Origin: Glycera tridactyla
Lineage: Eukaryota
Direction: 5' to 3'
NCBI GenBank assembly: GCA_965644265.1
Contig: OZ286476.1
Coordinates: 7,688,001 to 7,752,000, forward strand
DNA: 64,000 nucleotides
A program made the translations under genes and the position numbers. This document shows, piece by piece, positions 10,196 through 61,448 of this stretch. Every line of letters begins with the position of its first letter. Positions within the stretch are counted from its first letter, which is position 1. Below the pieces are notes generated by a model, which saw nothing but the letters and a program-made list of their open reading frames with translations, searched no databases and was not told the DNA's origin.

Positions 10196-10196
<1 letters not shown>

Positions 10197-15222: not shown

Positions 15223-16251
15223 TTATGATGTGAGGTAGTATCTGCCTCGAAATTGTACAGACAGCTCGGTTGAGTGAAATCGCTGTCCGCGTAAGACCTT
15301 GTCTAGGACGATCTCAAACACGTCCAGAATCTTCATCACGTCTGTCTTGCTGTTAGCCTCTTGTCCACACAGGTCTATCATCATATCAGCAAGATGAGTT
15401 TTCAGGTGACTCTTGATGGAATATGTGTAATAAGGCTTTCTAGAAGTCCTCAAAGTCGAGTCCAGATAGGCCAATTCGAGTATCACCGCGTGGAGTGAAT
15501 TCATGTGTTCTGACATCCTCATGATTGCTCTTTCATCAGGATTGTAATCAGGATCGAAAAACGGAACCATGACGATGTCCAATGCTAATCTGGTGACAGG
15601 CTCTGAATACTTGGAATCGTCGTAGTGGAATCTTCTAGAGTCTCTCCATTCATACTCCTCCCTCTTCTTTTCACCGTCCTTTTTTGGAGGTAGAAGGGTC
15701 CGGCAAGACACTGTGTATGGTGTTATCTCTCGCTGGAGCAGGAATACCTTGTATGCTGGTGTCCACCTCGTTAATCCCATTTGTCAGCTCTTTCTGTTGA
15801 ACAGAATTTGTTGAACATGATGATAATGATGGACATAGATTGTAATCGCCAGCATGCATAACATTGGACGATTTTTGATACGCATTCACATCCGGGAATT
15901 CGACATCTGACTGAACAGACTAAAATATTTGATTGTTCGACTGGTTGTGTCGGTCTTGGTATGAAACATTACTGTGGATCCAAATGGTTTCTGCACTATA
16001 CACTGATTGAGAAACCTCAGTAAGTGAGAATGGTACGTTATCGAGGTTGGTAATGAAGGACTATCACCATTATCATCCGATATTACTTCGTACTGATCTG
16101 ACTGTAGCTCATCCGGATCGAAACTTGGTGTAGGAAATTCAGTAATAGCACTATTAGATTGACTATCAGTGTAGGTCCATATGTCTGATGATTGTGAAGA
16201 ATTTGATTTATCAGACACTGACGCTGTAGGTATGTGGAAATGGCATGGCAA
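15223..16251 (-). pseudogene. Unknown protein, probably one frameshifted gene (ORFs 15886-16251, 15671-15889, 15223-15780)
   Basis: Overlapping same-strand ORFs; TATATAAA at 16279-16272 just upstream; the 185-aa distal part has globular-like composition. Confidence 0.4.
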
Positions 16252-17460
16252 TTTCTCAAAATTGATGTCAGTTTATATAGTATGCTAAAGAACGTCATCA
16301 GCTAGATTTTACTCCTTTATCAAAGTCCAGTCTTGTAGAGTGAAAGGTTGTTTTGACCAATTCCATGAATCTAGGGTGAATTGGAAAATGAATGTCCATC
16401 TTAATGACCAATGACAGTTTATAGAGTAGCACCACCCTGAAATGAGACGTTTTAGTGATGATATCAATGTATGTAAAGAATATTGCATCATTTGTTTACT
16501 TGCATGATATCTTCTCGCATGCATCTCATGAAGAATTAGTGATTTGAATGAATCGATTCTTGATTGTGTTGATAATTCCGCCATAATTTGACTGGACTGG
16601 AAAGTGTCCTTATTGATGTCACCTCCTGCCCAATCTAGGAGGGTTTTACATGGTGTAGAAGTCAATGGTGGAGAATCTCTTACAATTATGATAGGTCAGT
16701 GAGTCCCCCAGATTCCCACAAGGTGTGTTGTTGTTTCTACATGAATCCGCATCCTACCATAGTGGATCTAAAAGAATTCGATCCACCATTGTCCTTGATC
16801 ATTGAGCACCAGATCCTTTGGATAGTCTGTAATCAATAGTCAATCAGGTGTCAGACTGAATAATGATATGATCATTGTCGCATGACCATGTCTGGTATAC
16901 AGCTCCAACAAAATGGAAGTTTCAGGCAATTTCTACTTTGATGATTTTTCTCCACCTCGCACACTTGAGCAGCTTCGCTCTCGACAGGTTCAACTATTCT
17001 CATCTCAAGTGGGTTTAAATGACATCAAACTCGGACAAAAAAAACAAAACTGGTAGACTTGTGAGAGTGGAAAATATGGGCCAAAAGGCCTACAAAAAGA
17101 CTGTGTATGCAAACCCCAACAAAAAAAAGTAAAATCCCTATGTAAAATGATAAGATCTAAAAAAAACATCCTAGAAGAGACGAGAATATCCAAACTAATT
17201 CATGATCCACGGTTACAGAGTCTAGTGGCTGTATCTCATCATCGGATATGTCAATGTATTGACAAGCATTATCGACTTTGATACACTAAGTCATGCTCAA
17301 AGTCTCTAGCAAATCCTCCAATATCAAGTTGGTAGATGTAAAGATATCCGTGCCAGCTGCAGGAAGATATTGATTGAAAATATCCTCATTGATTGACTCA
17401 GCAAGAAATTATGGAAATGAAATAATAAAAGATTGCACTTCATCAGAATCTAAGTCGGAA

Positions 17461-18060
17461 CTGGGAATTTCGTGTATGATTAGTGTTATTGTGTACCCCC
17501 CTCTGTCAGTACAGTATGAACCGTGAGGATGATGCCCGTGATTCCATAGATTGCAAAGTGTTCACATCTGCTGTGTTTGGAGTGAAAGACTGAGATATAT
17601 AGAGTTCTGATTGGCTGCCTTCCATGTTGATGTATCAAACTCAAAACTAGTGTGAAATCTTATTTGAAAAGGTTCATATATATGAAGGAAACAGCTACGT
17701 CACTGAATATACACCTAGATATTGACGAAAGCTATAAGTTTCTGTAGACCAGATACCCCACTTGTGACGTCAACTGGTGGCCTCAATTCCACGAATGAGT
17801 ACTCAAGCATCATATTGACCTCCAATTTCATTGATTCCAATAATAAATTTGCAGAAAATAATCACTCTGAAATGGGAGGTTCTTGCTTGAAAATCAATAC
17901 ATTCATGGACAAATTTCATGGCTTTTACACTAACAATATGTTTTCCTGCCCTAAACTTTTCAGCGAATAGGTCCTTAACTGATTCTTTTTGTAATGAGGC
18001 TAGTAGAGCTTCAAGAATCTGACACGGAAAATAGAATTCTTCAATGACATCAAGTTCAGC
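17461..18060 (-). pseudogene. Accessory ORF-B remnant (unknown function)
   Basis: Manual translation AELDVIEEFYFPCQILEALL...*RHKWGIWSTETYSF resembles WRHHFGISS in ORF 45296-45727; nucleotide matches 18755-18860 to 45275-45385 and 20017-20131 to 45126-45241. Confidence 0.45.
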
Positions 18061-18351
18061 GTGTCAAACAAGATCAATCAATCAAAATACAGTATGTCTC
18101 TAAATCTAGACTGGGCTAAAAGGACATGAAACAAGATCGATCAATCAAAATACAGTGGGTATCTAAATCCAGACTGGGTTAGGCAAGCCATCAAAAGTCA
18201 GACAACCAGACAGATGGCCAGAAAATCAACCAGACAGATGCAGCACAAAATAGGTATGAATATATGTATATATATATGTATATATATATGTAGTTGACGA
18301 GGCAAGGCACGTCCTACGTCAGCGAAGGTGAGACTCGGAATGACCGGTTTG

Positions 18352-18396: not shown

Positions 18397-21300
18397 GTTG
18401 GGCGTTGGCCCTCTGGTGTCAAATATTGTCAACAGCAATACAGTGATCTCTCACTAGATGTCACCGTCCCTAGTGGCTTCAGAGTGAGAGTTGGGCTGCT
18501 TTCCAATTGAGGGAAGTTGCCCCATTCCGAGTTTCGGCCATATGGGCCTCATCAGTCACCACAATGGTCACAAATGCATCAGAATAGGACTGTATTTTCA
18601 TACCAGAAAAAAAAAAATATATATATATATATATATACATATCATCCACACATCCTCATATGTAGCTAACTACCCCGATGCCGGTGCAGAACTCCTGTGT
18701 TATACTGATTAAAAGTATTTCCCCTAGATCATGAAAACCATGTTTTACCTCACACGATCCTGCTGGTCACAAGATTCAGATCCTCCTCATACCAATGCCA
18801 GTCTGCCACTCTTCCAGAATGTAGATGGTAGTGGTGGGAGTGCAAGACCAACTGAGATGTGGGAATTTCGTGTATGATTAGTTTGATTGTGTACCACCCT
18901 CTGTTAGTACAGTATGAACCATGAGGATGATGCCCGTCATTCCGTAAACTGCAAAGTGTTTCCATCTGCTGTCGTTAGAGTAAAAGACTGGGGTATATAG
19001 AGCTCTGATAGGCTGCCTTCCATGTTGATGTATCAAACTCAAAACTAGTGTGAAATCTATATCAAGGAAACAGCTACGTCAGTGAATATACATCTAGATA
19101 TTGATTTGATAACCTACTTGTGATGTCAACTGGTGGCCTCAATTCCACGAATGAGTACTCAAACATCAAATTGACCTCCAATTTCATTGATTCAAAAAAC
19201 TGTGTGTATCTATATCTAGACTGGGCTAAAATGACGTGAAACAAGATCAGTCAATCAAAATACAGTGGGTATCTAAATCCAGGCTGAGTTAGTCAAACCA
19301 TCCAAAGTCAGTCAACCAGACAGATGGCCAGAACATCAACCAGACAGATGCACAAACCAACAGATAGACAGAAAAACAGACACAGTCAGTCAATATTCTC
19401 AATTCTTCATGTGCCTATATGTCTTGAATACCTCGTGACAATAAAAAATTATTAATTCGCATATAGGTCATTCACAAAACTCAATTTCTGTGCTAATTTT
19501 CATGCATCTGGAACAGACATCATAGGCTGGAAATTCGTTAGTCTCGAAGGCTATCAGAGCCATGTGTCTGAATTTGAGGGATGTAACATTTTCGTAGAAT
19601 TCATCTAGCAATTTAAATTCATTTTCCATAACTGGTCATTGACTCATACCCGGATTTTCCACCATGTAATGTTTCAGGGGGAGGCTGTAAGGTATATACA
19701 TATTTACTCGTGACCAATGTTGGTCGTATTTGGTGCTTACGTGAACATATGGTTAGTAGCTACAAAAAACAATACCATAATTTATAATGAGAAATTCGAT
19801 ATAAGGCAGCGTAACAAACAAATACCACAACACTCACCTTTTTGTTGCCAATATTCTTGTTGCTCTCCAATACAAAATAGGTATGAATATATGTATATAT
19901 ATATCATCCACACATCCTCATATGTAGCTAACTACCTCGATGCCGGTGCAGAACTTCTGTGCTACACTGATCAAAAGTAATTCCTCTAGATCATTAAAAC
20001 CATGTTTCACCTCACTGTCCTGCTGGTCACTAGCCTGGGGCTTGTGATTGTATCTCACTGCCCAACTTCCAATGGGGTTCTCCCCTCCCTTTGGGGAGAT
20101 CAACTCACGAGTGATGGGTTAGGAAATAGTGCTTTCCCAGGACAGCCGACTTGCTAGCTGTGCTGATTGTTAGGCCTAATGGGCCACTACAATCGAGGGG
20201 GTACTTCTATGGGTTACACATGACACAACAAAGGCTGCTCGAAGTATAAGTACATTCTCTTAATCATTATTCATTCATGATCTACTGGGTTGGGGTCTGC
20301 TGATATGAGAAATGGGGGCACGGGCCCGGTGTCAGTCCATTCTTATAGCCCTAGGATCATTTCCAGTTTTCCTGCACTCGTCTTTTTGCTTTCGCACTGA
20401 CAACCACACTGGTGCTGACACTCGCCCCTCTCTCACCCTCTCTCACTCTTCACACTCTCATCTCTCACTTCATTCACTCTGGTGATGGTCACTCCTGAGA
20501 GCTGCCTCCCTGTCGTTGAGGCACCGCCTGAACAGGTTGTACGATGTTCAGTGTTACTAGCCGGTGGGGCTGGCTCACCCTGTGCTTTCGAGGTGTCCGG
20601 CAATGGGTCCTGTGTGACCTCAGGGTCCCCAATCATCTTAAATATGCATTCACAAATGTCTAGGCTGTCTTGATCAACATGACTTAGAACCCTTTACTCT
20701 CTGAAAAGGAAGGGGGGTCCTTATGTGTATACCCCAACAAGTTAATCAAACCTTATTCCAAAGTTGCCTAAAATTCCACAGACGCTGGCAGTATGCCCCA
20801 CCTTCCTATTGCATTGCTTACCTAGCATATGGTATGCTAGAAACCGGAAAAATACATATCCACCTCATTATGGCCAAATTATGGTCGATTCCTGATACGC
20901 CCCCAAAACGCTGGTGCCTCACGTGGTTCCTACATCTAGACGCTAGCCGTGCCCATCCTGCTCCCCCCGACCGCACTCGCCCCACACATATATCTTACAT
21001 CCCATCCTACACATACACACTGCCTCCTCTGCATCCGCCGCATCCTACCCACATACACACAGACACTCCTATCCTGTCTATATGAACCACCTTGCTTATC
21101 AACCCAAATTCAAAATTCCTCCCATTTTCATGCAATATCTCACAATGAATAAATCCCTATATGACATCCCCAGACACTGGGTTTACTTCCACTGTAAACC
21201 ATTGATTGGGTACGTCATGACTAACATAGGATTCATGGGACTAAAACCTTGAAGCTGAAGAACAGTCTGGAACATGAATTTAGCACATGATGATGATCAC

Positions 21301-22354: not shown

Positions 22355-23143
22355 TCAGATTGAATTGACCAATCCAGGTACACTGATAGTCTGTCCAATA
22401 TATACGCAAAAAGTTAAAAAACTATGCAAGATTATGGTGATTGTTCTGGTACAATTATATGATCCCTGGATCCTTTCAAGCTCTAGTCTTTGCATATGAT
22501 TTTGACGTTGTTGTCCACCTGGAGTATCTGATGTACATGTCTTTGTAGTCATATGACCTTTATGGAAGACTGGCAGCACTTTTGGAGTCCTGGTATTATT
22601 GCCACCTGCTGGGTCCTTGGTTGCCAGCCTCGTCCAGAGTATAGTATGTGATCTTACCATCTTCTCCAAGCTCGCCATATTCCAATGGTGGAGGTCCCTC
22701 CCCATTAAAGGGATGGAAAAGTCCGTCCATCTCCAGAGGGTTCTCCCATCTTGGATTGTCAATCTTCCCAACAAGTGAATCCGGGTCATCTGTACTGTCT
22801 CCTGCATTCTGCTCCCCCTATTGTCAGCAGTCCCTGCAATAGCCCAATCTTCTTTCACTCCCACTTTCAGGTCATTCATTGCATTTTCCAAATTTGCAAT
22901 AGCTGGGTCCTCTCTGGTCGAATACGACCCAACTTTCATCTGCACAACATCTCTATCAGCCTCTTCAACTGTCAATGAATTGGCCCACTCCAATCGTTCA
23001 GCTCGGGCCCGTGATCCAGGATAGACGCCTCTTCCAAACCCTAGAGTTGGGCCTGAGGAGCGCCCGATGCCCTTATTGAGTCGAGCTCCTGTCGACTGGA
23101 AATGCGTGGGCCCCCATGTCACCTGTCTCGCAGTCGTCGGCAT
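22355..23143 (-). CDS. Accessory ORF-C, unknown function, probably frameshifted in its C-terminal half
   Basis: 262-codon ORF directly downstream of env on the same strand; no recognised motif. Confidence 0.4.
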   Translation of the reverse strand: MPTTARQVTWGPTHFQSTGARLNKGIGRSSGPTLGFGRGVYPGSRARAERLEWANSLTVEEADRDVVQMKVGSYSTREDPAIANLENAMNDLKVGVKEDWAIAGTADNRGSRMQETVQMTRIHLLGRLTIQDGRTLWRWTDFSIPLMGRDLHHWNMASLEKMVRSHTILWTRLATKDPAGGNNTRTPKVLPVFHKGHMTTKTCTSDTPGGQQRQNHMQRLELERIQGSYNCTRTITIILHSFLTFCVYIGQTISVPGLVNSI

Positions 23144-23510
23144 CCCCGGCCTGGAAATGGCTGGTTACCCACCGGTGGACCTGGACGCTGGACCTCAAGT
23201 CCTTGTTCGACGTTTCATTTCCTTGGCCTCCTACAACACATAATCTTCATTATATTTCCAGAATATGATTATTTCACACATATAAATGTATGTCATTTCT
23301 TGATACCTGTAATCAAAATACCTGTGATCAAAATCATCCATCTACCTGTAATCAAAATCATCCATCTACATACACACATCGTACACATATGACCTTATAA
23401 CACATACATTCGAACATACATATATATATATAGTCAATATTTCATCAAATTCCCGCATTTATTACCTATCCTGAATCTTATACTTAAACCCCTTATACAT
23501 GATTATATGC

Positions 23511-25637
23511 TTAGCAAATCTCACCAGAGCATGCGATATCCTTCAAGCAAGTCTTGCCCGATGTCTCTGACAGAAGTACGCTTCGTGGGTCAGCTGCATA
23601 CGTGCTTGGGGTTAACACTATTCTGGCAGAATATCTGCCATGCGCACACATACTTCGTGCAATCATGGCTTGATGGTATGTGATAGCTGTCCTGCTTGGC
23701 AACTCAAATTTCTGGACCTTCCCATCAAGACCCAGTACAGCATTCCCCCATTCAATGAACAGATCATATGCTGGCCAATTCCAGCTCACTGCTATTTTTA
23801 TCCGATCTGGATCATATTTCACCGCCACCCTGTATAAAGCCACTGGTATTTTCATCACTTTTGCAATCAGATATTTTTCCTGGGACACTAGTTCCAGTTT
23901 TACCCAGGTCCTCGGGCCACTATTTGGGAAATAAGCCATGCGTTGGACTGTCATTTTGCAGATGATCCAATGTTTCAGCGATTTCAGTCGTGTCTGATTT
24001 GGGCAATGTACTCAGTTGTTCTAACAGACCCTCCTCATCTATATTGGGTATCAGATGCATCATAATTGCCACATTGTACGTCCCATCAAGGGTGATGTTA
24101 CTTGATGTTTTTGTCTCCTGACAATTTGTCATAGATGACGGTAGGATGTTATCAACTATTCTCAGCTCACAACCACAGTCTGCTTCTACCAAGCAGAGGT
24201 TACAAGCACTCACCTCTGCGGTTACTTTAGCACATTCATGGATCCAGGGCTCAACTGTTTGACCTACCCCTACTGACATTACCAGATACCTACTGCCATC
24301 CACATGCACCACCTCTGTGTCAGAATACTGATCTAGATATACTTTGTATTCACATCTCTCTCTAATCTTTGCTAGATCATGAGTCAAACATGTCTGTGAC
24401 CTAATTGTTCTTTCAGGAAACATCTTTGGGCATATCCACAGATTATCATCACTCTCACAGCTACCAAGATCTGCATGTGAAATAGCTACATAATCTGTAT
24501 GTTGCTCATTGATAGCCATGTAAGATGGTGAATCCTCTATCCTAGTCACATCTTTTGATCGTGGTGCCACTGGCATCCGAATTCCTTCCACTCGATACAA
24601 ACGGTGTAACCCACCCTCACTAGTCAGTGGAATACTAAGGTGTATGTACATGTCACCTCCCATGGATTCTACCTGCACTAACCTTGGCCGATAGTAATAA
24701 GAATAATTGTCATACTCTGGCTTCAGGTGTGGCCATCTTCTCTTGACATTTTGGGTGACTTGATCTAACACCTCCTCCAAATCAGCTGCTGGAATCAATT
24801 CCATGGGAAGGTAACCCTTCAGGGCTGTCTGCAACCCACTCTGGTATCTATTTATCAGCAATCGATATATCTGAATATGAAATGCATAATGGGATACTAA
24901 ATTCCAATGAATCTTTGTGTACATAGCTAAAGCACTCACCCTCCTAGTCATATTCCCTACTACTGTCTATCCTAATGGTCTCATTTTCCAGTTGGTCTGA
25001 AATGCCAGCTTGTCTGGTTATTTCAAATGTCAGTCTTCGCAGTTCTATTCTTGTCTCATGGATATTAACAGTCACTAGGCTGGCTAGCTGGTTGTGGGCC
25101 CTGCTCAAGTTTTCCATATTGCCCTCCAACTGTCTCAAATTCCTGTTCATGCCTTGTCGACGGAACATGTAAACTATTCCGAAGCCAATTGTCGAAATTG
25201 TCCCAATAGCAGCCAGTCCTTTTGTCTTTTGAGGGTACCAGCAGGTGCCATGATCTCTTGAATTTTACTCGCTCATCATTTAATTCCCTGTATCTCTTTC
25301 TTAGGTCAACTGTCGTCTCATCTAGCCGTCGACAAAAGAATACCCAGTCTACATTCACTCTGTCACTGTATGGGTAAATCGATTGTCTGCAATTTTGCAA
25401 ATGATTTGGGAATACCGGCCCAGTCAATGTGGCCATTCTGAATGTATGCACAGCATGGCCCCTACAAAATGTAATCCCCCCTATACGATGAAATATAACC
25501 CCATATTCCAATTGTGTCTCAACTCCAGTGTGGCTGTCCCGATCGAATTTTTCATCATTTCACATCTGCATATCCAAACAAAATACACATCCCAATGCAT
25601 ATCCCGGCAGGAACTTATTTCACCAGATACCTGCCAT
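23511..25637 (-). pseudogene. env: env-like fusion glycoprotein (baculovirus F/errantivirus env-like), frameshifted
   Basis: Broken signal-like N-terminus; QLEYGVIFHRIG; near 25201-25231 a furin-like R-Q-K-(R) followed in the shifted frame by GLAAIGTISTIGFGIV (fusion-peptide-like); heptad region NLRQLEGNMENL; LKGYLPMELIP..L..VL, YYY, YIHLSIPL, LYRV, Cys-rich F1 region; separate C-terminal domain 23511-23954; no clear TM anchor remains. Confidence 0.8.
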
Positions 25638-26174: not shown

Positions 26175-26643
26175 TCAGGGTTTTTCAATCTCTATCAGTT
26201 CCGAGTCTGTGGTGATTAATTTTTCCAATGGTTCAAACCGCAGGCCTTGATCGCCCGTGGTACTTAACCTTTTCCATAATTCTTCATTGAATGCAAGGGC
26301 ATTTTTCCAGAAGATGACTGGGTTCATAACTCGGCCGATACGCATAGGGCGTTGGCCTACCACAGTCACATTATTTGCTATTTGCATCCCTATTAGTTCT
26401 TCAGCGAATGCACACAGATGTGCAGGCATTTTCTTCATTCTGGCTGGATCCACACTCAGGCACATATGGATGTTGCGTCTGCCAACATCCAGCCACACAT
26501 GGTCCAAAACCACTACATCAATTCCTCTCATTTCTTTCAACTTTGGGATTGATGACCTAAGTACCATAATAGAGAATGCCTCTTCTTGTATGGTACTAAT
26601 CTACACGTACCTAGGTTTAGTCAAGCCCATCATGATGCTGTCC
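26175..26643 (-). pseudogene. Accessory ORF-A, 3' part (interrupted by the LINE at 26644)
   Basis: DSIMMGLTKPRYV..FSIMVLRSSIPKLKEM..HMCLSVDPARMKKMPAHLCAFAEEL aligns with 46172-46708. Confidence 0.75.
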
Positions 26644-26755
26644 TAAAAAAGGACAAAAACGAGAAGTCTCACTATCGCCCAATGATTCAGCACAGACCGA
26701 CAAATCCATCAGCAGACGAAAAAAGAAACAAAGACAAAAAAGCTCCAGCAATGAT

Positions 26756-28378: not shown

Positions 28379-28387
28379 TGCACCACG

Positions 28388-29401
28388 ATGAGTCTCTTAC
28401 CAATATATAAGAGGAAGGTGAACAGAATCTACCCACCGAAACGGCATATAACGCAACAGGACAGAGCTATACTTACAGAAAGGATAAACGGAATTGATAA
28501 GCGACGTCTCAACGCGGCCTGCGCGACTGTAAGTAGCCTGGGAGCCCCTAATATTCTGCTAGTTGGTGCATCTCATGCGACACGGCTAATGAAATATGTC
28601 AATGAGATGGACGATGAAAGCATACTTGCCAAGCTCATGAAAAAAGAGTCAGTGAAGTCACTTTCTGTTGGGGGAACGAAATTTTGGACTTTCATCGACA
28701 ATATACAGGGAAGAGCGATGTCTGTGGAGAAAATCATCAAATTAGGGAACCAGTGAGAATGTGCCGCAATCAAAACATTTAAACCAGACATAATCATCCT
28801 GATGCTGGGCTCCAATGACGCCGACGATGCAAACTCTCACTTAGACCAAATAAAAAAGAACAACACAAAGTACAGCTATGCATGGAAAGGCCCGATCGAG
28901 GCTGGGATATGGCGCGACCAACTATATCACGAGGTAGAAGAAGTGATGTCACTAATCAGAGGGCGATACCCGGCAGCACCATGTGGGATCATCCCCATAT
29001 TTCCCAGGAAATGGTGGCTCAGTGAAGCCAGAAAGCTAGCGTGGTCGTTGAACAAGCATTTGTATAATGATCTTCGTAAGTCCCACCATACCCGCCTACT
29101 CCTAACAAGATCCATCTACTACGAAGCGACTGCTCCACCGGCGGACTCAAAACTTCCAGATAACATCGTTAGTAGTCTACTCAACATCGACAATGTCCAC
29201 CTGAACAACGATGGTCACCAACTACTCCTGTTTGACATCATTCCAGTCATCATGGATTGGTGGAAGTGCAACCAACTACCATCTCATCCAGAAATCCACG
29301 TTGCAAGCCGCAAACGAAAGAACAGTCATCGATATGAGAGACGACTAAAACAACGCTGCCTGGCCACCATGACGAATGTTCAAACACACCACGATGCATG
29401 A
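28388..29401 (+). pseudogene. Stand-alone SGNH/GDSL hydrolase ORF with one in-frame TGA (28754-28756)
   Basis: Block I LLVGASH, block II VGG, block III MLGSND, block V DNVHLN; the two listed ORFs share a frame; basic C-terminal tail RKRK. Confidence 0.85.
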
Positions 29402-29617
29402 ACACATCAAGGTATGATCAACATGGTCTCCGGCTCCTACCGCCCCAGCTCCAACTACTGGCCTACCATAGATTAAACTCACCAACCGGCCACCTCGTAC
29501 GATCGCACATTCAGTTAGCTACCCGGAGTCAGGAGTATCCCCCCAATTGGGCACCAATGAAGGCCATAAATGAGAAACTAGTATGTAACAACCTGGTCAC
29601 AGAGACAGAGGACTGCG

Positions 29618-32010: not shown

Positions 32011-32106
32011 CTCACAATCACACTCACAATCAACTCACAATCGAATCAACTCACAATCAACTCACAATCAACTCACAATCGAATCACAACCAACCCACAA
32101 TCAACC
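32011..32106 (+). repeat. 11-bp minisatellite (TCACAATCAAC)n just upstream of ORF2
   Basis: About 8 degenerate copies visible. Confidence 0.85.
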
Positions 32107-32167
32107 GAAATCACCAACACCAAGACTCAGGACTCCTACTAGAACAGCCCTGACATTGAATCTCGTA

Positions 32168-49700: not shown

Positions 49701-50846
49701 TACTTCTCTATCCACTTCCCATCATGTGTTTTTTTTTTGGATAGCATGGTCGTGAAGATTTTATTATCGGTATGGACTGTAAATGCGGATCCTTGTAGTC
49801 AGTATTCATACTCATCTACCGCAGTGACTATTCCCAAGCACTCTAGCTGACTGAATTCATACCAGCTCTGAAAGTTTTTGCTGCCATATGCAATCACAGC
49901 TTCACGACCCCACTTCGACACGCCAGGTCTTTCATGCTCTGGCATCTCCTGTGTCAGGCAATGGTCGATTCCTTTGTGGCTTGCATCCACATTCAGCTTG
50001 TAAGGCAAATCTGTCCATGGATATGTCAGAACCGGTGGCTCGACCATATTATCTTTGAGAGTATTATCATCTGCTTCAGGTTATCCGTCTTTCCAAGTTT
50101 TGGACTCTCCCTCGTCACATACACTGGTTCGTGTTCAACAAGGGCTTCTTGCAGTGGTAGCTGCTGCCTGTCTGGGAGTATTGAATCTTCAAAATCAAAA
50201 AAGTTCCGAAAGGTCATCCTTTCCTAGTGGCTTATTCCCTTTGCCACCATATGTACTACTGGGCTTCTTGATGACAAGTCTGCCTTCTCTGGTTTTCTGT
50301 CCCATAATGGTATTTCCGTGTGTCTGTTACGAATCCCGCCACCAGCCTTCCTCTTTCCAGTTTCATCTTGCATCTATTGGCATTCACCATCCTCACCACC
50401 ACTAATCAATTGATCACATAGCCGACTGTCTGGACTGTGAGCACACCTGCATCCCCCAAGCAGGGGTCATGTAAGGCATCATCCAGGTCGCATTCCCCAT
50501 TTTCAAGATCCGGGGCACTGGTCAGGATTGTCCCTGGCAACGACCAAACCCCGGTCTTCCAAAGCATCTTTCACCTCCAACGGTTGGCAATTTCTTGCTA
50601 TGTGCTTTTGTTGAAAATAGGATCTGGCTCCCCCACTGCGACACTGCCCGGATGTACACATATTTCCCACAATTGAAGCACTTCGGTCTCCTCTCCTTCC
50701 CCCTGGCTTACCGTCTAATGTGTTCTTGCTGTATTCTTGGTTTCTCTGGAGGTGGGTGAGATCCTTTTCAACTTGTTGTTGTCTCCCTTTGCCTTGTCTA
50801 CTGCATGGGTCCAGCCTGTGCCTCATGTGGCACCACCCTTCCCTGG

Positions 50847-51050
50847 AAACCCAGTGCATGCCGACTGGGATATCAAAGGCCGGCTGTGTTTATAGGGGTC
50901 TCTCCCTGTATGCACGTAAAAGAAGCACTGCTGTCTTTTGCAAAGAGTAGGGACGGCCCCTGACAGCGGTGCCTCTTTTCCTCCGCATTTTCAGTTTTTC
51001 AGTCCGATATAACCAATGGTGTTGATAGGACATCAAACCCGAACATACAA
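50847..51050 (+). mobile_element. I/Nimb-like LINE 3' UTR fragment (copy 2) with a 16-bp TSD
   Basis: Homologous to 36925-37140; flanked by CACCACCCTTCCCTGG (50831-50846) and CACAACCCTCCCCTGG (51051-51066) inside gag. Confidence 0.8.
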
Positions 51051-51606
51051 CACAACCCTCCCCTGGGCTGAACGGTTGTGATTGCACGGCCTGGGGTCTC
51101 CTTTCTTTTCTTTCTCTACCAGTGTCATTGACTGCGCAGTCATGGCCAAATCCAAAGTAACTTGTGAATGTTGTGGTCTACTGGCGATGACATATGTTTT
51201 CCAGTCCACTGGCAGTCCTGTCATGAAGCAATTCAGAACATCTCTCGGTGCCTGGTCCAGCCTTTCACCGAGGCAGATTATTTCTCCATAATATTTTATC
51301 TCCTGAGTTTCTTTGTTTGCTTTTGATTTTGATTTATAACTTTTATTTAATTTCGTTGTCAACATTTATACACATATACAACAGCGTACATTTTCAGAGC
51401 AACGATTATATGTGAGACACGTAAAATACGATCGGTATGAGGCGTGATGAGGTGACTGATTGATGAAGTGATATACGAGATGTATGATGGGCGATGCAAT
51501 GATGCAATGATAGAGTGGCATTATTCATCAGAATGATATTTACTTATAATTACATATTCAAGCTGGATAATATAGAAGGCTATCGAACAAGGAGTAACAC
51601 TTTTGC

Positions 51607-54600
51607 TTATAGTTTTTTCACATAATTTTTAAATGAAATAGGAGGCATGACATCAAAATCAGGTAATCGTGATAAGGAGTTATTCCAATTTTTGGCAGCG
51701 CGATGCCTGAAGTTTTTTTCGCTCAGTTTGTAATGAAGTTTATTGATTTTCAAAAAAGGTTTATCTTTAGAGCGAGTGGCATGTGTATGAATCTTAACTT
51801 CTGTCTCACAGATTGGCGCGCATGTCCAACTACCATTTAGTGTTTTGTTCACATGGATTAATTCATGTAGCGAGCGTCGAGTAGTGAGTGGCTTTAGGCC
51901 AAGATCATCATGGAGTTTGTCAATACTGTAGTATCTGGGTTTGATTGCAATTATACGCATAGAGATATTTTGTAATTTTTGTAGTGTGAAGGCATTTCGT
52001 TGTGATAAGCAATTATATACCACGTCTGCATAATCAAACAAAGGCAGGATCAGCGTTTTGTATAACATAAGTGAAGTTTGTTTACTAACAATAGATCTCA
52101 ACCTACCCAAAACGCCAATCCTGCACATTGTTTTTGCCTGTACATATGCAACATGATGTTTAAAAGTGAGTTCCGGATCTAGAATAACTCCCAGGTATTT
52201 CATTTTTGGAACTGTTTCCAGAATATAATCAGCTGTCTTTATTGAGATTTCCTTAAAAGGTCCTAAGATAGATGGAAGGCCCTGAGCCATGAATTTGGTT
52301 TTGGACAAATTAAGAGACAGTCTGTTTGCATTCATCCAATCCGCTATCTTTACCATGATGTAATCCATGATTTCCTTCATTGTGTCATGCCTCCTACATG
52401 TAACACTGAGTGCAGTGTCATCTGCGTACAGCATTGTCCTCATCGATAAATAACATTCGGGCTCATTTATCATAATATGAGATGTGGCGTTCCTCAAGTA
52501 ATTTGGGAGGTCATTAATGTATAAACTAAACAACAACGGCCCTAATATCGAGCCTTGAGGAACGCCACATGAGATAGGCTGTTTCGCAGAAGTATGATTT
52601 CCAACTCTGGTCTCACAAGTCCTGCATCTAAGGTAACTGGATAGCCATTTTGTAGAGGATTTATTTAAACCCATAGCAGATAGCTTGCGTAAGAGGAGCG
52701 CATGGTCCACCGTGTCGAAAGCCTTCTTTAGGTCCAGGAAGATTGTTCCAGTGACACCCCCCCGCTCAATACCCTGATAAACATTATCAAGGTATTCAAG
52801 CAGGCAGGTGCCAGTCGAATGCCCCTTCCTGAACCCTGACTGCTCCCGACACAGTAGTCCCATGCGCTCCACATAGTCATAAAGTTGCTGTTGGACAATT
52901 CTTTCCAAAATTTTACTAACAGGCGAGAGCAAGCTTATCGGTCTGTAGTTACTTGGTTGTGGTCCTTCTCTTTATACAAAGGAATAATCGTAGCTGTTTT
53001 CCAGGTGCTCGGGAAGTGACCAAGAGTTATACTTTTGTTAAAGATCTCCTGTAGCACCAGAGATAGAGGATTCATGCAATTTATAATGACTCTAGTTGGT
53101 AAACCATCGTCCCTGCCAGCCTTAGATGGATTGATTTCTCGAATGATCTCCTTTACTTTTTCAACACTCACTGGTCGAAGTTCGAAGGTATCAATCAGGT
53201 TATATGGTAGGCAAATCAAAGGGTCAAGGCCACTGGGTGGAATGTTTTGAGAGAGGCTGTCACCAACTGTTGAGAAATACTTGTTTAGTAGTTCCGGGAT
53301 TTCTTCTGGATCAGTGTTGTTCATAATTTTGGTAATAGGAGTGCCACCCTTACCGTCCTTCCAAAAATTACGTATCGCCTTCCACATTTTTTTACTGTCG
53401 TTTTGATGTTGTGAGAGTTCATTGTCTAGCAATGTTTTCTGTAAATGCCTTTTCAAAATTTTTGTTTCTTTCATTAGACGGGTCTTTATATCTAAATTTT
53501 CTGGGGATGGTGATATTCTATAATTATTACTCGCAGTTTCACGGTCTCTCACCAAGTCCAAGTATTCTCCCGTAACCCAGTCGGGACAGCCTTCTCGTAC
53601 AGTATAGCGCTTGGTGGGAATACATTCATCAATGGCCTTGACAATTTTTGTAAGAATGGAGTTAACTTTGCTCTCAAACTCTGGTATAGTACATACATCT
53701 GAGTCCATGGATAGTTGCAACGAGACAAGCTTGTCCGAAAGTGCATCATAGTTTGCATTTTTAAAATTTCGTAGGTAAATTACCTTCTTTTTCTTAGATG
53801 CCCTTTTCTTTTTACGTGATGTGAAGACCAATGCATGATCCGACAAGCCAGGGTCGATGCAGCCACCAAAACGATATAGCGTAGGATTTGATACAATGAT
53901 GTGATCGATACAAGTGGCTGTGGAGTCTGTGACTCTTGTAGGATCCTTAACTAGTTGTTCTAACTGGTTTGTATTACAAAACTCCTCCAAAAGTTTTCGA
54001 TTCCTAGAGGTTTTTAGCAAGTCAATATTATCATCTCCTAAGATGATGGCATCACAGGTCCCTAATTGATATATGTCAAGTAATTTGTTATCCAAAATAT
54101 CAAGGGCATTGCATGGGTTTCCCTGGGGAGGTCTGTATATAGCTGCAAGATAAGTAGGCTTAGTACAAGGTAGCGACAGTCTAACCCAGAGACATTCTAG
54201 GTCTGCATTGCAAATACACCATTCACTTTGCAATTCAACTATCCTATTTTCCTTATAGTAGATTGCTAGGCCTCCTCCACCTTTCAACCCAACTCCGCCG
54301 TCTCTATCGAATCGGATCAAATTATAACCGTTGATGTGTAACTCATCCGAGTTTATCGATGAGTTAAGAAAGGTTTCGCCCAAGCATAGAATATCTAACT
54401 CACTGTTATGGAGAAGTATTTCTATGTCATTGACTTTCCTCACTAGACTGCGGATGTTTAGATATGCTATTGTCACTCCACTCAGGCGTTTCAAATCAGC
54501 TGTACATTTTATTTCATTTGAATTATCGGCGGTGATGCTTCTTGCTTTCGTTTTGATATTGGCGGAGTTGGTTTGATAAGTTTGAGGGTTCATAGTTCTC

Positions 54601-54662
54601 CAGCCAGGAATGGGTTGAGCCTCTCTAGATGATGATGAGATGAAGGATGAAGATGAGAACAT
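51607..54662 (-). pseudogene. LINE ORF2p (APE plus RT) with one frameshift near 52940
   Basis: YLNIRSL, LGETFL, IYRPPQG, GDDNID, IDHIIV, SDH; YRPISLL broken by the frameshift; QSGFR, FLDLKKAFDTVDH, GVPQGSILGPLLF, YADDT, KYLG. Confidence 0.93.
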
Positions 54663-55396
54663 TATGTTGCTAGCTTGGTTAGCTTGTCTTGGGGACGGGT
54701 GTTGTTAGTACAATATACACTTAGAGTAGATCAGGAAATTCGCCTTATCAGTCGCAAGGGGGAGTTGATTAGAATTGGAGCAGGGTGGAGAAGGAAATCA
54801 GCAGGATGATGTCGTAGTTATATAAAATTCTATATGTGGGATAACTAAGTAGATCTACCAGTCAGGACTATTAATATCTGTCAATACTGTGATAGATAGT
54901 TAATAGTAATTATCAGCATTTGTCGGCGTTTGACCTTCAGGCGCACTGCGTGTACCTTCCAGGTCAAACGTAGTTTCTATCAGTTAACAGTCCCCATATA
55001 TTAAATTATTAGGTGCCCCCCCCAATGGTAGGGAGGTGATGTCTTTGGGTACATGGTAGTGTCAAGTTTGTCTGGTCTCCACATATAAATCAAGGTTCAG
55101 TAAAAGACAGGCACGTAACATGTGAATACGTAACAGGCATAGATGATCAACCATAATGAATTCGATTAGAGACCTAATCCGGAATACGGTATTCAAATCC
55201 AGGCATATATGATGCTTTTTCTTTGCTTGATAAACGGATTATTCACTGAATTTGACATTACACAATATGATATAATATATATAATATAGACCCAGGTCCC
55301 GCGAGTAAATCAAGTAAAAGAAAGCCTAATTTGGGATGTCCAGAAGACTCAGGCGCTCATCGAGTACCTTCCGTCTTCCCAAGAATGTCATCTTCA

Positions 55397-56353
55397 TTAA
55401 TTTGTTTGACTTTCAATGCATTCTGATTTCCTTTTTCCAGCTCTGCGCTTAGCTCCGCGGGATCTGGGTCTAATAATCGCAATGGCATGTGTTCTTACCC
55501 ACAATTCGATCAGAAGAGCTACTGTACAAATTGCGAGAACATGATAACCCCTCTCATTGAGATGTGTCATATCATGGTCCAGTAGCCCTTGCATTATATC
55601 GCCAAACGCCATGGAGAACTTTCTGATCCTAGTAGGGCCAGCAAACCCCTTATGGGACAGTTCACATTTATGCGATATATCAAAAATAAGATGGGGCTTG
55701 ATTAACTCGATTGTAGTGGTATCAGATTCGTTGCAAACATTGCTGATGAAGAGATCTATGGCGACTGCAACTTGCAGAGACTCGTTAGACCAATATGGTC
55801 TCCACAGAACCCGGAGATGGCATAAGACTGCATCAGGAAAAAGGCCCCTCAACATCCAAATAGTGTCGCGAATCTTGGGGTAGAGAGTGCGTAGGAAGTC
55901 AGTCTGGAGGGACAACAGGCATTGTTTCCTTACTCGAGGATCGCGATGATTGACATAAAAAGTTTTCCGATCGAACGAATCCACGTCATTTGATCCTAGA
56001 ATAATTATCACGAAATTAGGAGCAATATTCGAATTTTGGATTTTAGTCAGTGTGTTTCCATTTCTCAATTCCCTGACCTTGTTTAGAAATCTGCCTTGAA
56101 ATTCTGATTCGAACGATAGCCATTTCGCTCCTCCAATTCCATGGAAGTGCCAATTGGATACTACAGACCTAATTGACTCGTCTTCGATTGACATTGCATA
56201 CTCCCCGAATCTTCTTACGTGACTAGAGCCAATCACTAACACACACGGCTCTCCGGCAGAAACCAGATCCCATCTCCAGCGACTGACTGGCCCAAGATTC
56301 GGGTCTATAGTTAGCCTTTTAGAGGAGTTTTCATCGTTTTCCATATCTGTCAT
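55397..56353 (-). CDS. Stand-alone SGNH/GDSL hydrolase ORF, intact (318 aa)
   Basis: LVIGSSH, GIGG, ILGSND, DMTHLN; basic tail RRAGKRK; clearly homologous to 28388-29401 (DESI, GG.K, QGR, LGSND, LL..D..HLN..G). Confidence 0.88.
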   Translation of the reverse strand: MTDMENDENSSKRLTIDPNLGPVSRWRWDLVSAGEPCVLVIGSSHVRRFGEYAMSIEDESIRSVVSNWHFHGIGGAKWLSFESEFQGRFLNKVRELRNGNTLTKIQNSNIAPNFVIIILGSNDVDSFDRKTFYVNHRDPRVRKQCLLSLQTDFLRTLYPKIRDTIWMLRGLFPDAVLCHLRVLWRPYWSNESLQVAVAIDLFISNVCNESDTTTIELIKPHLIFDISHKCELSHKGFAGPTRIRKFSMAFGDIMQGLLDHDMTHLNERGYHVLAICTVALLIELWVRTHAIAIIRPRSRGAKRRAGKRKSECIESQTN

Positions 56354-56705
56354 CTACAACAAAATATCAATGCAGTGATTGTAAGGGAAAGTAACGTCAA
56401 TGTGTGGCAGGGTTTCGCCGTAACAAAATCAACCTATTGGTAAGCCGCATCGTGGTTATGCTTGACTAAATTCGCCTGCGCTTGCCGTTACGGGTGGGCG
56501 ACCCGTGCTATCGGTGGGTTGTCACACGTCAACCTCGTATGTTGTTTGCAATTAATGTAGTGAGGTGATAGGGGTTGGTAGTATGGTTTCCAAAAATAAT
56601 CTAAACTAAATAAGTATTTCAGTATACTGACCAGGAGCGATCTGCTGTTGGTGCGCATGAAGGAATTCACTTTGTCAATGCTTTCTTGTAGAAACATTTC
56701 TGTTC

Positions 56706-59171
56706 TCAGGTAAGCGCGAGTGTGCTGTATGGATTTGAACTCAGTACTGACTCGTGTTCTGTCGGAGAAGTATCGAACTTAGACGTTTTCTTGGGGAAGA
56801 GAAAGTTGCCCTCTGGTGTTTCATGTTCGGGAATAGGGTTTCCTCCACCGCCAGACGATAGTTCGCATTGCTTTCTTCGCGCCGCTTCGTTTCGTGCTTT
56901 CACGATCCATGCTTCCATGATAGTACTCGCTTTCACATCTGTTGCAACTTTACTCGATTTATTTCGGAATTTCTTGTTGCTTCTAGATTTGTTTTTGACA
57001 CCATCATGTACCCTAGAACCCTCCTGTCGCACCATGCCACCTCCCGAAACTGAAGGTACCACTTTGGAATTTTTGCCTATATCATCAAGAATGCTGTCAG
57101 ATAATTTGTCTGTTGAGACCCTGTGACTGGTTGCGTCGAGAGAGTCCACGTCTCGTGTCTTACAGATTTCGTTTAATCTATTTAGTGAGAAAATCGGTAG
57201 TTTCTCTCGAGACCTGTCTTTGGAGGCGTAGACTCTCCCGTCACGTGTCCAGACACTATCCAGTTGCCCATCTGTTTTGGCTTCCCGGGCTTTGTGGAGA
57301 ATCTGTGACTCTCTGTCAGTTAGATATTCACGGAAGAAAATGCTAGAATTCCGGATATTACCCTTCTTGATGAGAATGTCCTTCCTGATGTTTGGGTTGA
57401 CAAAACGGATTTTGACAGGACGTGGTTTGTCTTTGTCTCTGATCGGACCAAATCTTGCTATTTGACATATATCATTTTTGTTCAGACCAAGACCAGTGCG
57501 TTCATTTATTAATGCAAGCGCTTGATCAATCAGGATGATATCTTTGCGAAATGGTAGCCCGTCTATGACAATGATACTCAACCTATCATTTTTATGCAGA
57601 ACATCAATATCGCTATCGTGTGATGTTACCTTGATAGCGCATGCACTAACAGTAGTTTTCATTTCATTGAATTCCTCAACAAATCCAGGAGGTAGGCTAC
57701 ATTCACGTCTTGACTTTAGCTCGGATTTGATCTCACCCATTAGATTATTCAGATTCTTGTCCGATTGTCTTAGGAGGTCATCATGACTTTCAACTTTGAC
57801 GGTGAGGTCCGCGACACATTTCATCATATAGTCACTGGAATCTTTTTCTTCTTTTTTTGAAGCTTCAATTGTGTCGTCTACGTAGGATTCCATGGTTTCC
57901 TGCCATTCGAGGTTGAAGGCAGTGAGCTTGTCTTCCAGCATAGATGGTAGATTGTTCTCCATACGTGCATCGCACGTGGTGATAACGGCTTCGCCTAGGT
58001 TCCGTTCCATGTTGTCTAGCTGTGTTTCGATCTCATTTTGTGAAGTGATCACGGATGTATTGATCATTTGTGGCACATGTTCGTCTACATATGATTGGCA
58101 AACCTGTTTTGCCAGTTCGACAATCATGTCATTATTAGCCTGATAGGGTGGGGTAACTGTTTCTAGATTTTCTGCCACTAATTTACCTACGGAATTTTTA
58201 AGATCATCAGAGGTGAATAGTTCTTCAATCCGTTGCTTGACCACATATTCAATATCACTGTTTTTTATTATGTCGGTGTTCGTAGCTTGGTCTACTTTGG
58301 TTGACAACCATCGTTTTCCTTTCGCACTTATTGCCGTGTCGTCATTGTCCACATGATCAAAGGTGTCATGTTCTTTAGTGAGGTCACCGGGCACGTGCGT
58401 GTGTTTGTCATGTTGTTGCTCGAAGTTTCTAGGGGAGATGCATGCAGGTTTACTCATGTCGGGGTCAATAGCTTGTGACTGACGTTTTGACTCTTCTACC
58501 TGTGTTGACGTGTGCAGCGGAGCGTCATTGACATGTCTGTCCAAAGTCATGTCTATAACAGTTGGGGGAGTTTCACTATGAAGAGTGATGAATGAGTCAG
58601 ACAGTGAGTTATCAAAAGCAAGCAATCCCTCAGATAAGTTTTCATCTATATTTTCGTGAAAGGGAGACTTGTTGTGTGTGACAGAGCAATCATACACAGG
58701 TGGGATATCCATTGGCTTGACACTAAAGCGCTTTGCGTCAGTGCGATCGTCGACGTGATTCCCGAACTCCGTATCAGGACCACCCCCTTTCTTAAGCGTA
58801 TTGCATATAGCCGATGAGGAATGATCTAGCATATGTCTGTCTGTAGATTCATGAGATTGCGAGATGCTAGAGGAATCAATGTCATTGTCAATCACTACAC
58901 TGTCAAGGGTATCTGACAGTGACATTGTGCTCGTATGGGCGTTATCAAGAGGTGGTACAGAGTTAGCGCGTTTACTCACCAAGCTCTGTTCAGTTTGTGA
59001 ATGGCGACATTTTGGGGTCAATGAACGAAACCTTTGGTCCACCATCTTGGATCCTGCTATCCTAGATTTCGCTCTTGTTCTTCTTTCGAAAATACCCTCA
59101 CATGAGTCATCCTCTTTCGTCGCCGTCTTGCTCATCGTGTCCTTGGAATCTTCATCCATTGTTTCGCTCAA
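56706..59171 (-). CDS. LINE ORF1p (long disordered N-terminus, coiled coil, L1-like RRM/CTD)
   Basis: RLSIIVIDGLP, RFG..KPRPVKIRF, IFFREYLT, AREAK, VWTRDGRVY. Confidence 0.85.
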   Translation of the reverse strand: MSETMDEDSKDTMSKTATKEDDSCEGIFERRTRAKSRIAGSKMVDQRFRSLTPKCRHSQTEQSLVSKRANSVPPLDNAHTSTMSLSDTLDSVVIDNDIDSSSISQSHESTDRHMLDHSSSAICNTLKKGGGPDTEFGNHVDDRTDAKRFSVKPMDIPPVYDCSVTHNKSPFHENIDENLSEGLLAFDNSLSDSFITLHSETPPTVIDMTLDRHVNDAPLHTSTQVEESKRQSQAIDPDMSKPACISPRNFEQQHDKHTHVPGDLTKEHDTFDHVDNDDTAISAKGKRWLSTKVDQATNTDIIKNSDIEYVVKQRIEELFTSDDLKNSVGKLVAENLETVTPPYQANNDMIVELAKQVCQSYVDEHVPQMINTSVITSQNEIETQLDNMERNLGEAVITTCDARMENNLPSMLEDKLTAFNLEWQETMESYVDDTIEASKKEEKDSSDYMMKCVADLTVKVESHDDLLRQSDKNLNNLMGEIKSELKSRRECSLPPGFVEEFNEMKTTVSACAIKVTSHDSDIDVLHKNDRLSIIVIDGLPFRKDIILIDQALALINERTGLGLNKNDICQIARFGPIRDKDKPRPVKIRFVNPNIRKDILIKKGNIRNSSIFFREYLTDRESQILHKAREAKTDGQLDSVWTRDGRVYASKDRSREKLPIFSLNRLNEICKTRDVDSLDATSHRVSTDKLSDSILDDIGKNSKVVPSVSGGGMVRQEGSRVHDGVKNKSRSNKKFRNKSSKVATDVKASTIMEAWIVKARNEAARRKQCELSSGGGGNPIPEHETPEGNFLFPKKTSKFDTSPTEHESVLSSNPYSTLALT

Positions 59172-59749
59172 CTACGATCACGACCCACTTGGTTTTCTTG
59201 TCATATATGATGATTTCCTTCTCCTAGTTCACCGGTTGCTTCTTACTCCCCACGCATGCGCCTTGCAGCCGTTCCTCTCCTGCATAATTTATCTCCACTC
59301 TTGTGGATTGATATTTGTCTTTCATTAGGGCTATTAGGATAGCACAGATCTTTGTCTGTAACCTTCTTTCCCAAATAATATTGGGCCAGGCCAGCCAAAC
59401 CCATGCTCAGGGCTGCCTTCTTCTTCATGGAATGTTTTCTCTTCATCCTCTGTTTCATCCCAGTTTGGTATTATGCAGTAGTGTTCAAATCGCTCCAAAA
59501 ACACGATGACAGATTCATTCGACCATAAAAAACTGGAGCAACTTCATGCCCCCCTTTCCGGTTGCCATCTTCTCTACCGATCCTTCTGCCTCGATAAGGT
59601 CCTCCTCTCTGCCTATACCATCCACTGCAAGCAGGGTCTCATCAGCTGCTTCAATACCTTCCACCAAAGAAAGAAAATCGAACTTTTTTGAATACATGAG
59701 ATGTCGCCCTAAAGCTGACAAATACCTGCATCTGGATAACTGGCATGAC

Positions 59750-60468
59750 TTTGCTGGATTCCAAACCAATTTTGAATTCCTGGAAATGAGGCAGCTGATG
59801 AAGCTGCCAAAAGGGCTCTAGGTTTGTCAGTCACTGAGATGGAAATCCACAATTCAGACTTCGAACCAAGAATAAAGCTCTATATTGACCAACTGTGGCA
59901 GAATGGATGGGCAACATGAAAGCGAAATAAATTGTAGTGCATCAGACGAAAACTAGAAGACAAATTCCCTTTAAGAACACTGAATAAATGAGAGGAGATA
60001 GTACTTTTGCTTCTAAGGATAGGATTTACATATCTCACTCATTCACACATTCTCAAAAAATGAGGCAATCCTAATTGCTTCGCATGTGGGAGACATCTTA
60101 CAGTCAGAAATGTATTGATCAACTGTAGAAAACTATCACAAACTAGAGTAAAAGCATTACAATGTAGAAAATATGACACAACTTTTCATGAAAGTTGATC
60201 AACAGACATACTTGCATTATTTGCATGAATTGGGAGTATTTGGACAAATATGAATCGTATGCATGCTAACCCAGTGCATACCGACTGGGGTATCAAAGGC
60301 TGATGGTGTGTATGGGAGTCCCTGGGAGTTCTTGTATGCACATAAAAAGTAAGGACGGCCTCTGGCAGTGGTGCCTCTTCGTTCAGCATTTTCACTTTCT
60401 CAGCCCGATATAACCAAAAGTGGTTTAAAGAACGTTGAACTCAACTCAAATGAACATACAAACAACAA
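59750..60468 (+). mobile_element. 5'-truncated I/Nimb-like LINE (copy 3): RNase H end, zinc-knuckle region, 3' UTR
   Basis: Manual translation CWIP..*IPGNEAADEAAKRAL; YIDQLWQNGW..NKL; EEIVLLLLRIGFTYLTHSHIL; CFACGRHLTVRNVLINC; YNVENMTQLF; same 3' UTR and (AAAC)n tail. Confidence 0.85.
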
Positions 60469-61448
60469 ACCGATCCTGGATGCTCCTGATCCTGATTCAC
60501 TTGGTCTGCATCTTTTTGATTGGCCGGACTTCACTCTATCATGGTACATATCCCAGATCCTGTACGAGTTTGCTGCTACAATGCTCATATCCACTGTGCC
60601 TTCAGTATATCCGATCAATTTACCAGCGAATTCCAGCATCTCCAAAACATCACCACCAGTAATGGTAAACCCATACATAGTATTGTTGTGCTGTAGTTAG
60701 TGTACATGCAAGATATAGTGCTGGTTACTTGTGAGTTGGAGTTGGTAGGCCATGTAGGTACTGCGCATGATATGATACCTGCTGTGAGCGTGTGTACTGT
60801 TCCGTGTCCTGAGTCCAACTGGACACATGTGCTCACGACTTCTGGCATTGTGACATCACTGCGCATGCATTCCCGAGATGGGCGTATGTGGGGAAAACCC
60901 GATATGTGCACATACGTGCACACCACACTCCTCCCTGTCTCCTTTGAAGAGAGACCTCCCGTGGCGAGATGGACAGTTCTGCCTCAGCGTCAAGTCTAGC
61001 AATGCCAGACTGACCCATGACTTGGAACATGACTGGGTGCAGATGAAAGAAAAACACCCAGACCACACTGAAGAAGAATATAAAAACTGTTCATGGGTCA
61101 TGGTGCCCATGTAGAAAGTGAAATGATCCTTGTCAAAAGCCTTTGGGGTAAGCTCTAGCAGACCCAAAGTATGACACACAGAGTGTTGACAAAGTACAAC
61201 TCGCCCAAAGATCAACCAGATAAAGACATACATATGCATTTGAAAACAGAACTGATGACAACTGTGAACAAAGACCCACAAAATAAAATATACTGATGGC
61301 CAAACCGCAAAAGAATGGCTGGCATGCGAGACTGACACACCAGACACAACCAGTCATATCTACATATGTACAGTGAATATGCTGATGTCCTCAGCTAGCT
61401 AGTGGCCAATGCCAACCCACACATGCCAATGTTGAGGAATGCCAAACA

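Follow-up and report, generated by a model that had tools for sequence, protein, structure and literature searches.

Within the window, the whole 64-kb stretch of Glycera tridactyla DNA analysed here, lies a series of retroelement genes that raises two questions: what kind of element they came from, and how it might have left its host cell. For env-bearing Gypsy elements outside Drosophila, the exit from cells is an open question, and a recent survey describes the transmission mechanism of most elements as still elusive and itself doubts that env came from a baculovirus (PMC13524379). An initial annotation had proposed a giant element of 18-20 kb with a conserved 3' cassette of several accessory genes. 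Instead, we find as the best explanation of the whole, with a probability of roughly 0.6, that these are dead env-bearing chromodomain Ty3/gypsy copies whose Env was a polyprotein of two products, fusogen and matrix-like, for budding.

One Ty3/gypsy family is present in the window as two tandem minus-strand copies. As originally noted, both have gag and pol, which align between the copies in three blocks with 71-76% nucleotide identity.

42680..44133, minus strand: gag of copy 1, with two CCHC knuckles at its 3' end (zf-CCHC E 1.1e-11, two stretches), matching copy 2
38934..42283, minus strand: pol of copy 1, frameshifted, with RT, RNase H, an integrase remnant and a chromodomain (Pfam matches to RVT_1 and RT_RNaseH)
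59263..60695, minus strand: 5' part of gag of copy 2, aligned to copy 1
48687..51324, minus strand: 3' part of gag and pol of copy 2, with RT deleted and a decayed integrase core kept

The gag of copy 1 also has a conserved, broken 5' extension with a hydrophobic segment. The best PDB match of the RT is Ty3 RT (E 8.6e-30). Most of the copy 1 integrase is deleted near 39830, and in copy 2 a core after the RNase H position weakly matches PFV integrase (E 0.008), with no match in the Pfam integrase families. Hence gag followed by pol, a Ty3-like RT and, on this weak integrase match, the order RT-RNase H-integrase are all found, as in Ty3/gypsy elements (Metaviridae). At the C-terminal end of copy 1 pol (~38934-39044), a chromodomain (Chromo E 2.2e-4; 21.5 bits, under the Pfam gathering cut-off of 25.1) has the position C-terminal to integrase seen in the chromodomain-bearing clade of ancient errantiviruses. 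The two copies represent a single Ty3/gypsy family with env and a chromodomain, and both are dead. The layout of the family is gag, pol with the chromodomain, a spacer of ~4 kb (a 23-bp array and an orphan ORF, ORF-X) and env, probably with one further ORF after env.

Several repeats and insertions, together with an assembly gap, lie within these copies.

37839..38192: 23-bp tandem array of copy 1, between pol and ORF-X (15.2 units, 91% matches)
47470..47689: degenerate 23-bp array of copy 2 (z 18.5 against 30 shuffles)
36810..37139: interspersed repeat of ~330 bp that inserted secondarily, with further copies at 50843-51050 and 60152-60465
36046..36190: assembly gap inside copy 1 (145 N)
26643..35686, plus strand: LINE-A, inserted within ORF-X and foreign to the Gypsy element (Pfam SGNH esterase, endonuclease and RT; junctions against copy 2)
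51325..59258, minus strand: LINE-B, inserted in copy 2 gag, ends approximate (sequence comparison with copy 1)

The 23-bp zone is indeed common to both copies, and LINE-A, which we take to be CR1/L2-like, is an insertion as previously supposed, with flanks that are adjacent in copy 2; LINE-B is likewise an insertion. The copies of the ~330-bp repeat gave nhmmer E-values of 1e-45 and 1.9e-38, with 87% identity in one block.

Beyond pol, the accessory coding capacity common to both copies comes down to a single ORF.

35687..35848, minus strand: 5' part of ORF-X in copy 1, 54 codons (codon-position mismatches 16/7/28)
26175..26642, minus strand: 3' part of ORF-X in copy 1, 155 codons, orphan (codon-position mismatches 17/17/40)
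46256..47050, minus strand: accessory region of copy 2, ORF-X without the LINE but frameshifted, with no env after it (alignment to copy 1)

The copy 1 blocks at 35705-35959 and 26353-26642 adjoin in copy 2 (46564-46819 and 46256-46545), and therefore represent one ORF of ~209 codons that LINE-A has split in copy 1, instead of the two conserved genes, ORF-A and ORF-B, of the initial annotation. The latter gave no coordinates for these, and both possible readings were examined. The ATG of ORF-X is common to both copies (46708 in copy 2), and in the aligned blocks 68 of 125 mismatches fall at third codon positions (p 1e-6), an excess indicating that ORF-X was once a real gene. Searches with Pfam, a word-based homolog method and other family methods found no ORF-X homologs, though these blanks are weak evidence, because the word-based search came up equally empty for the env core (longer class only), for which HMMER found relatives in plenty. 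The ESM Atlas offered only URO-D leads (sub-0.9), and a single-sequence structure model was unusable (pLDDT 35). Most likely, ORF-X encoded a trans-acting accessory protein. An SGNH-like reading, after the SGNH/GDSL ORFs of bdelloid LTR elements, found no support (no Pfam match; prob 0.1 when aligned by hhalign with the esterase of LINE-B; the same poor model). Nor do we claim a separate ORF just upstream: a stop overlaps the ATG of ORF-X in both copies, but the block carries no codon-phase signal (mismatches 13/15/16).

Downstream of ORF-X, copy 1 continues into env.

23920..25559, minus strand: F-type env ectodomain of copy 1, in three pieces (profile positions 17-120, 131-203 with a weak E of 0.09, and 227-533)
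23511..24011, minus strand: 'ORF-C', the C-terminal matrix-like domain of Env (env profile positions 680-801, E 6.7e-13)

With HMMER, the env core retrieved 695 homologs at E<=0.001 (0 at 1e-30), of which the best 150 were listed, and these we infer to be Gypsy Env proteins. Among the matches listed, 4 of 25 scanned homologs pass the Baculo_F cut-off and 1 more matches below it, while the family profile matches the PDB 'fusion protein' 9w4d (E 2.6e-19). The positions given above for the window's pieces are those on a profile of the 77 homologs of 780-960 aa among the matches listed. The F-like env that had been suspected is confirmed, in copy 1 only; no env follows ORF-X in the copy 2 windows aligned to copy 1. 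Counting ORF-C, the window env is in four pieces, from which ~146 profile positions spanning both membrane helices are absent, and no TM segment was detected in them. Among the matches listed, R-x-[RK]-R occurs within residues 100-200 in 43 of the 86 homologs that bear the C-terminal domain. In the operational sense of an errantivirus (PMC13524379), copy 1 alone has an F-type env ORF downstream of pol, and its env falls short on the remaining features, namely unbroken ORFs, a furin site, a fusion peptide and a TM anchor. Being broken and without TM, it has a lowered claim to active membership, not to ancestry. Moreover, gap-free stretches run from pol to ORF-X in copy 2 and from ORF-X to env in copy 1, and since these overlap and join at ORF-X, env is linked to gag-pol.

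Previously counted as a separate accessory gene, ORF-C is, judged by its sequence matches, the last domain of the broken env: it matches the C-terminal env profile (E 1.7e-15), and fusogen and C-terminal domain form one ORF in the homologs. Its structure model was confident (pLDDT 93.6), so that the structure prediction proposed for the accessory proteins succeeded for ORF-C and failed for ORF-X. In fold searches, the best matches were matrix proteins of Borna, filo, paramyxo and pneumo viruses over ~100 of 114 residues, with Borna disease virus M (3f1j) and filovirus VP40 among them. This C-terminal likeness to a matrix protein of negative-strand RNA viruses had been missed before. Several Jingchuvirales glycoproteins are among the top BFVD matches, given as whole targets and not by matched region. 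A four-copy complex prediction of the domain, with its alignment unused, gave no verdict (score 0.00). The domain may be a true homolog of Mononegavirales matrix proteins. We found no earlier report of a matrix-like domain in a retrotransposon Env in the literature searched, most subscription papers being outside its scope.

The homologs also share a membrane arrangement. Of the domain-bearing homologs among the matches listed, 68 of 86 show a pair of TM segments beyond residue 480, and the charges around these segments are basic, acidic and basic in turn. A hydrophobic-then-small-X-small motif occurs in 63 of 76 testable spacers between the helices, nearly always in the first half, against 31.9 when shuffled; the count follows an ad hoc crude rule, not SignalP, and drops 5 of 81 spacers. 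In sequence terms, this would fit an internal signal peptide, leaving the matrix-like domain cytosolic.

Both matrix proteins and late motifs have established roles in budding, the motifs occurring in VP40 and other budding proteins. P[ST]AP and YPXL are named as late-domain motifs in PMC5834213. Among the tails of the domain-bearing homologs, 11 of 81 carry P[ST]AP, where 0.3 would be expected; the whole of the sequence upstream holds 2 instances of this motif. YPx(n)L is present in 14 tails (2.2 expected) and PPxY in 4 (0.9 expected). The last 45 residues of 35 short homologs contain no late motif. Nor does the window's own Env tail, which counts against the budding reading, and the combination of a late motif with a basic, cytosolic, membrane-proximal domain expected of matrix proteins is seen only as an enrichment in homologs. 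A tree was built from the ectodomains of 121 sequences, with 30 partial ones left out. Along it, presence or absence of the domain switches 10 times, where shuffled labels give a mean of 30.5, a clustering that kinship alone can give; the window env groups with the domain-bearing forms. Taken together, the large Env family to which this dead locus serves only as a pointer probably carries a matrix and budding module.

In the mechanism that we propose, Env would be made as signal, F ectodomain, first membrane helix, internal signal, short luminal stub, second helix, matrix-like domain and late-motif tail. The F-type class I fusogen would terminate at the first helix, after which a short basic loop and the internal signal-peptide-like segment would bring the chain back into the lumen. 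The second helix would then anchor a cytosolic beta-rich domain of Mononegavirales matrix fold, with ESCRT late motifs after it in many relatives. Predicted cleavage by signal peptidase would free this second product as a membrane-anchored matrix-like protein, which may line the membrane beneath the fusogen, possibly oligomerising as predicted, gather Gag particles and recruit ESCRT to give them an exit route. The broader proposition is that widespread invertebrate Ty3/gypsy Envs are such fusogen-plus-matrix polyproteins, with a true Mononegavirales M homolog released by signal peptidase, anchored in the membrane and driving ESCRT budding; for this we see about even odds.

How far copy 1 extends beyond env depends on three further features.

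22355..23164, minus strand: 269-codon orphan ORF after env, absent from copy 2 (length reached in 0 of 300 simulations; element-like strand bias)
20016..20444, minus strand: PPT-like purine tract with TG after it (20444-20420), and one of the 145-bp units with inverted repeats
45125..45381: 145-bp unit whose termini form a perfect inverted repeat of 27 bp, next to a repeat of 112 bp, non-coding (inverted repeat; copies in copy 1)

The 269-codon ORF probably belongs to copy 1, though Pfam, the ESM Atlas and other family searches gave no homologs. The stretch at 20016..20444 is a possible 3' limit of copy 1, not a proven LTR; 20144-20420 has no second copy within the window. As before, no LTR pair was found for either copy in the window and no convincing PBS (TGGGGG at 45124 agrees by only a few bases with the single tRNA end in the list that has CCCCCA), nor any tRNA or Rfam match. 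Both the age of the copies and the insertions lying over them bear on this search. The block at 45125-45381 is 83-95% identical to 18747-18860 and 20016-20132, far above the RT-region identity, and in copy 1 its pieces are separated and stand in another order; high identity, reordering and terminal inverted repeat are most simply explained by a young, non-coding repeat, and this later shared 3' match thus gives poor support to an ORF-B. We also considered this block as a 5' LTR remnant, as TGG comes after its terminal CA, and rejected that reading as unproven: homology goes no further, the order of the pieces differs at 18.7-20.1 kb, and a matching PBS is missing. Among 14 copy 2 windows downstream of ORF-X aligned to copy 1, 3 match the 45115-45381 block, 2 are AT repeats, 8 match nothing, and the remaining one (z 4.4) was unrepeated in an overlapping window.

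The minus-strand purine bias of the element (0.56-0.59) continues across env and the 269-codon ORF as far as 20-21 kb, interrupted by an AT-rich dip at 21.5-22.5 kb; below 20 kb it has largely gone. From gag, copy 1 spans 11.2 kb to the env end, 12.4 kb to the 269-codon ORF and 14.7 kb to 20016, and the deleted parts, if counted, add ~1.3 kb. The supported span is therefore 11-15 kb, 14.7 kb at most, and 19.9 kb is reached only by including the ORFs at 15223-16695. It is on these ORFs that the 18-20 kb element with its cassette of separate genes down to 15.2 kb depends, and they probably lie outside the element, since they have a purine fraction of 0.507 and no match in copy 2 and sit beyond an internally duplicated 3-kb region; the ORF at 15223 has no family or phage match of note. 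In favour of this reading are a conserved, coding ORF-X, lengths of the 269- and 186-codon ORFs that simulations seldom or never reach (0 of 300, and 1 and 4 of 300) and true ends that are not fixed. Against it, the cassette loses ORF-C to Env and its later shared block to a repeat, and we consider the giant reading highly improbable. The multi-gene cassette is largely explained away. What stands of the retrovirus-like lineage once envisaged is a Ty3/gypsy element with an F-type env and an accessory gene between pol and env; the 'several' accessory genes shrink to one shared orphan ORF and the unshared 269-codon ORF.

Two other readings concern the matrix-like domain itself. Were the element an ordinary 'ancient errantivirus', the domain could be a generic beta domain in a long Env cytoplasmic tail, for trafficking or fusogen regulation, with a matrix likeness that reflects a common arrangement. 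This we hold to be unlikely but worth serious attention: the best matches span several matrix families over most of the domain, and late-motif enrichment and membrane topology do not depend on the fold search. Slightly less probable still than the giant element is a separate origin of the env-matrix block, as an endogenised piece of a negative-strand RNA virus (glycoprotein then matrix) that landed behind copy 1 and is foreign to the Gypsy element. Copy 2 is without env, no LTR encloses the env-matrix block, and a G-M gene order is known in some bornaviruses (PMC5834213); but the block is on the same strand, ~0.6 kb from ORF-X, has a strand bias like that of gag-pol (purine 0.568 vs 0.594) and is a single ORF in homologs, and errantiviruses as a rule have their F-type env downstream of pol (PMC13524379).

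If the fusogen-plus-matrix reading holds, a late-motif-bearing domain fused to F offers a concrete budding mechanism, and connects env with the negative-strand RNA viruses by way of a second protein, a link relevant to the origin of env in errantiviruses as well as to that of viral matrix proteins. In that case F and M, as a pair of modules, would be related by descent to those viruses. Chuvirus glycoproteins may carry a fused matrix-like domain likewise, and so hide the missing matrix; the ICTV chuvirus profile, in its available text, lists no matrix ORF (PMC10770922). Jingchuvirales are RNA viruses, not retroelements, and their likeness to our Env domain is that of whole glycoproteins among its top matches. 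To Mononegavirales matrix proteins, the likeness comprises the structural match, a basic domain and nearby late motifs in homologs.

The survey of F-type env Gypsy elements across metazoans includes a clade with a chromodomain, from Cnidaria, Mollusca and Annelida (PMC13524379). Its 'ancient errantiviruses' resemble our element in Ty3/gypsy gag-pol followed by an F-type env and in a chromodomain after integrase, and our element is little longer than their LTR-to-LTR spans of ~7.4-12.6 kb (first 45 of 1,512 supplement rows, by eye). They differ in the ~4 kb pol-env spacer, array and orphan ORF found here. That survey permitted 1 kb gaps, examined 3-5 kb downstream and covered ectodomains only, and its main text never uses the words 'matrix', 'cytoplasmic' or 'accessory'. 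In the bdelloid Vesta/Juno (PMC5408684) and in Ogre and Burro (PMC6431247), additional ORFs have been described after pol or in the interval from pol to env, though ORF-X matched no family. At 11.2-14.7 kb supported, our element stays below the >20 kb internal length of giant LTR elements such as Ogre and Burro, the latter being 25-30 kb long, with env in frame between gag and pol (PMC6431247).

In a BFVD search, several chuvirus glycoproteins matched the matrix-like domain, the C-terminal Env domain whose predicted fold resembles that of Mononegavirales matrix proteins. As the genes listed in the ICTV profile of the Jingchuvirales do not include a matrix gene (PMC10770922), it may be that a fused matrix domain resides inside the chuvirus glycoproteins. 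Among the best 150 of the 695 homologs of the env core, there is also a 26-member clade (support 0.98) whose proteins stop directly after a TM helix and are without the matrix-like domain; in these the domain may have been lost or may sit in an ORF of its own.

In the two decayed Ty3/gypsy copies, a conserved stretch upstream of gag's core (43930-44133 and 60465-60695, minus strand) contains a hydrophobic segment, and mismatches there number 19, 22, and 31 at the first, second, and third codon positions. This region, broken in both copies, is possibly a membrane-associated N-terminal Gag extension or else a small upstream ORF. For ORF-X, the orphan accessory ORF that follows pol, the start codon in each copy overlaps an other-frame stop as ATGA (35845-35848 and 46705-46708, minus strand), an arrangement suggestive of coupled translation, although no codon-phase signal was seen in the block upstream of ORF-X.

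LINE-A and LINE-B, inserted in ORF-X and gag, respectively, share the order of ORF1 followed by an SGNH esterase. Further repeats and genes in the window are as follows.

200-5288, minus strand: protein-primed type B DNA polymerase, frameshifted (Pfam DNA_pol_B_2, E 2e-18 and 4e-11)
10763-11983: array of 4.8 tandem 254-bp units (87% matches)
29598-31414, plus strand: ~146-bp repeat array in LINE-A, between the esterase and endonuclease-RT ORFs
61449-62798 and 14406-14587: additional LINE fragments

Among these LINE fragments is a 3' end that is present in duplicate and carries TAA repeats. The DNA polymerase is presumably Polinton/Maverick-like, and the orphan ORFs at 5655-8174 and 9459-9977, which lie on its strand, may belong with it, as possibly do those at 15223-16695, likewise on that strand. 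Pieces related to the 254-bp repeat also occur at 10195-10842. Lastly, 17462-20033 is a complex internal duplication (unit of ~1.3 kb, 81-89% identity) containing pieces of the non-coding 45125-45381 repeat.
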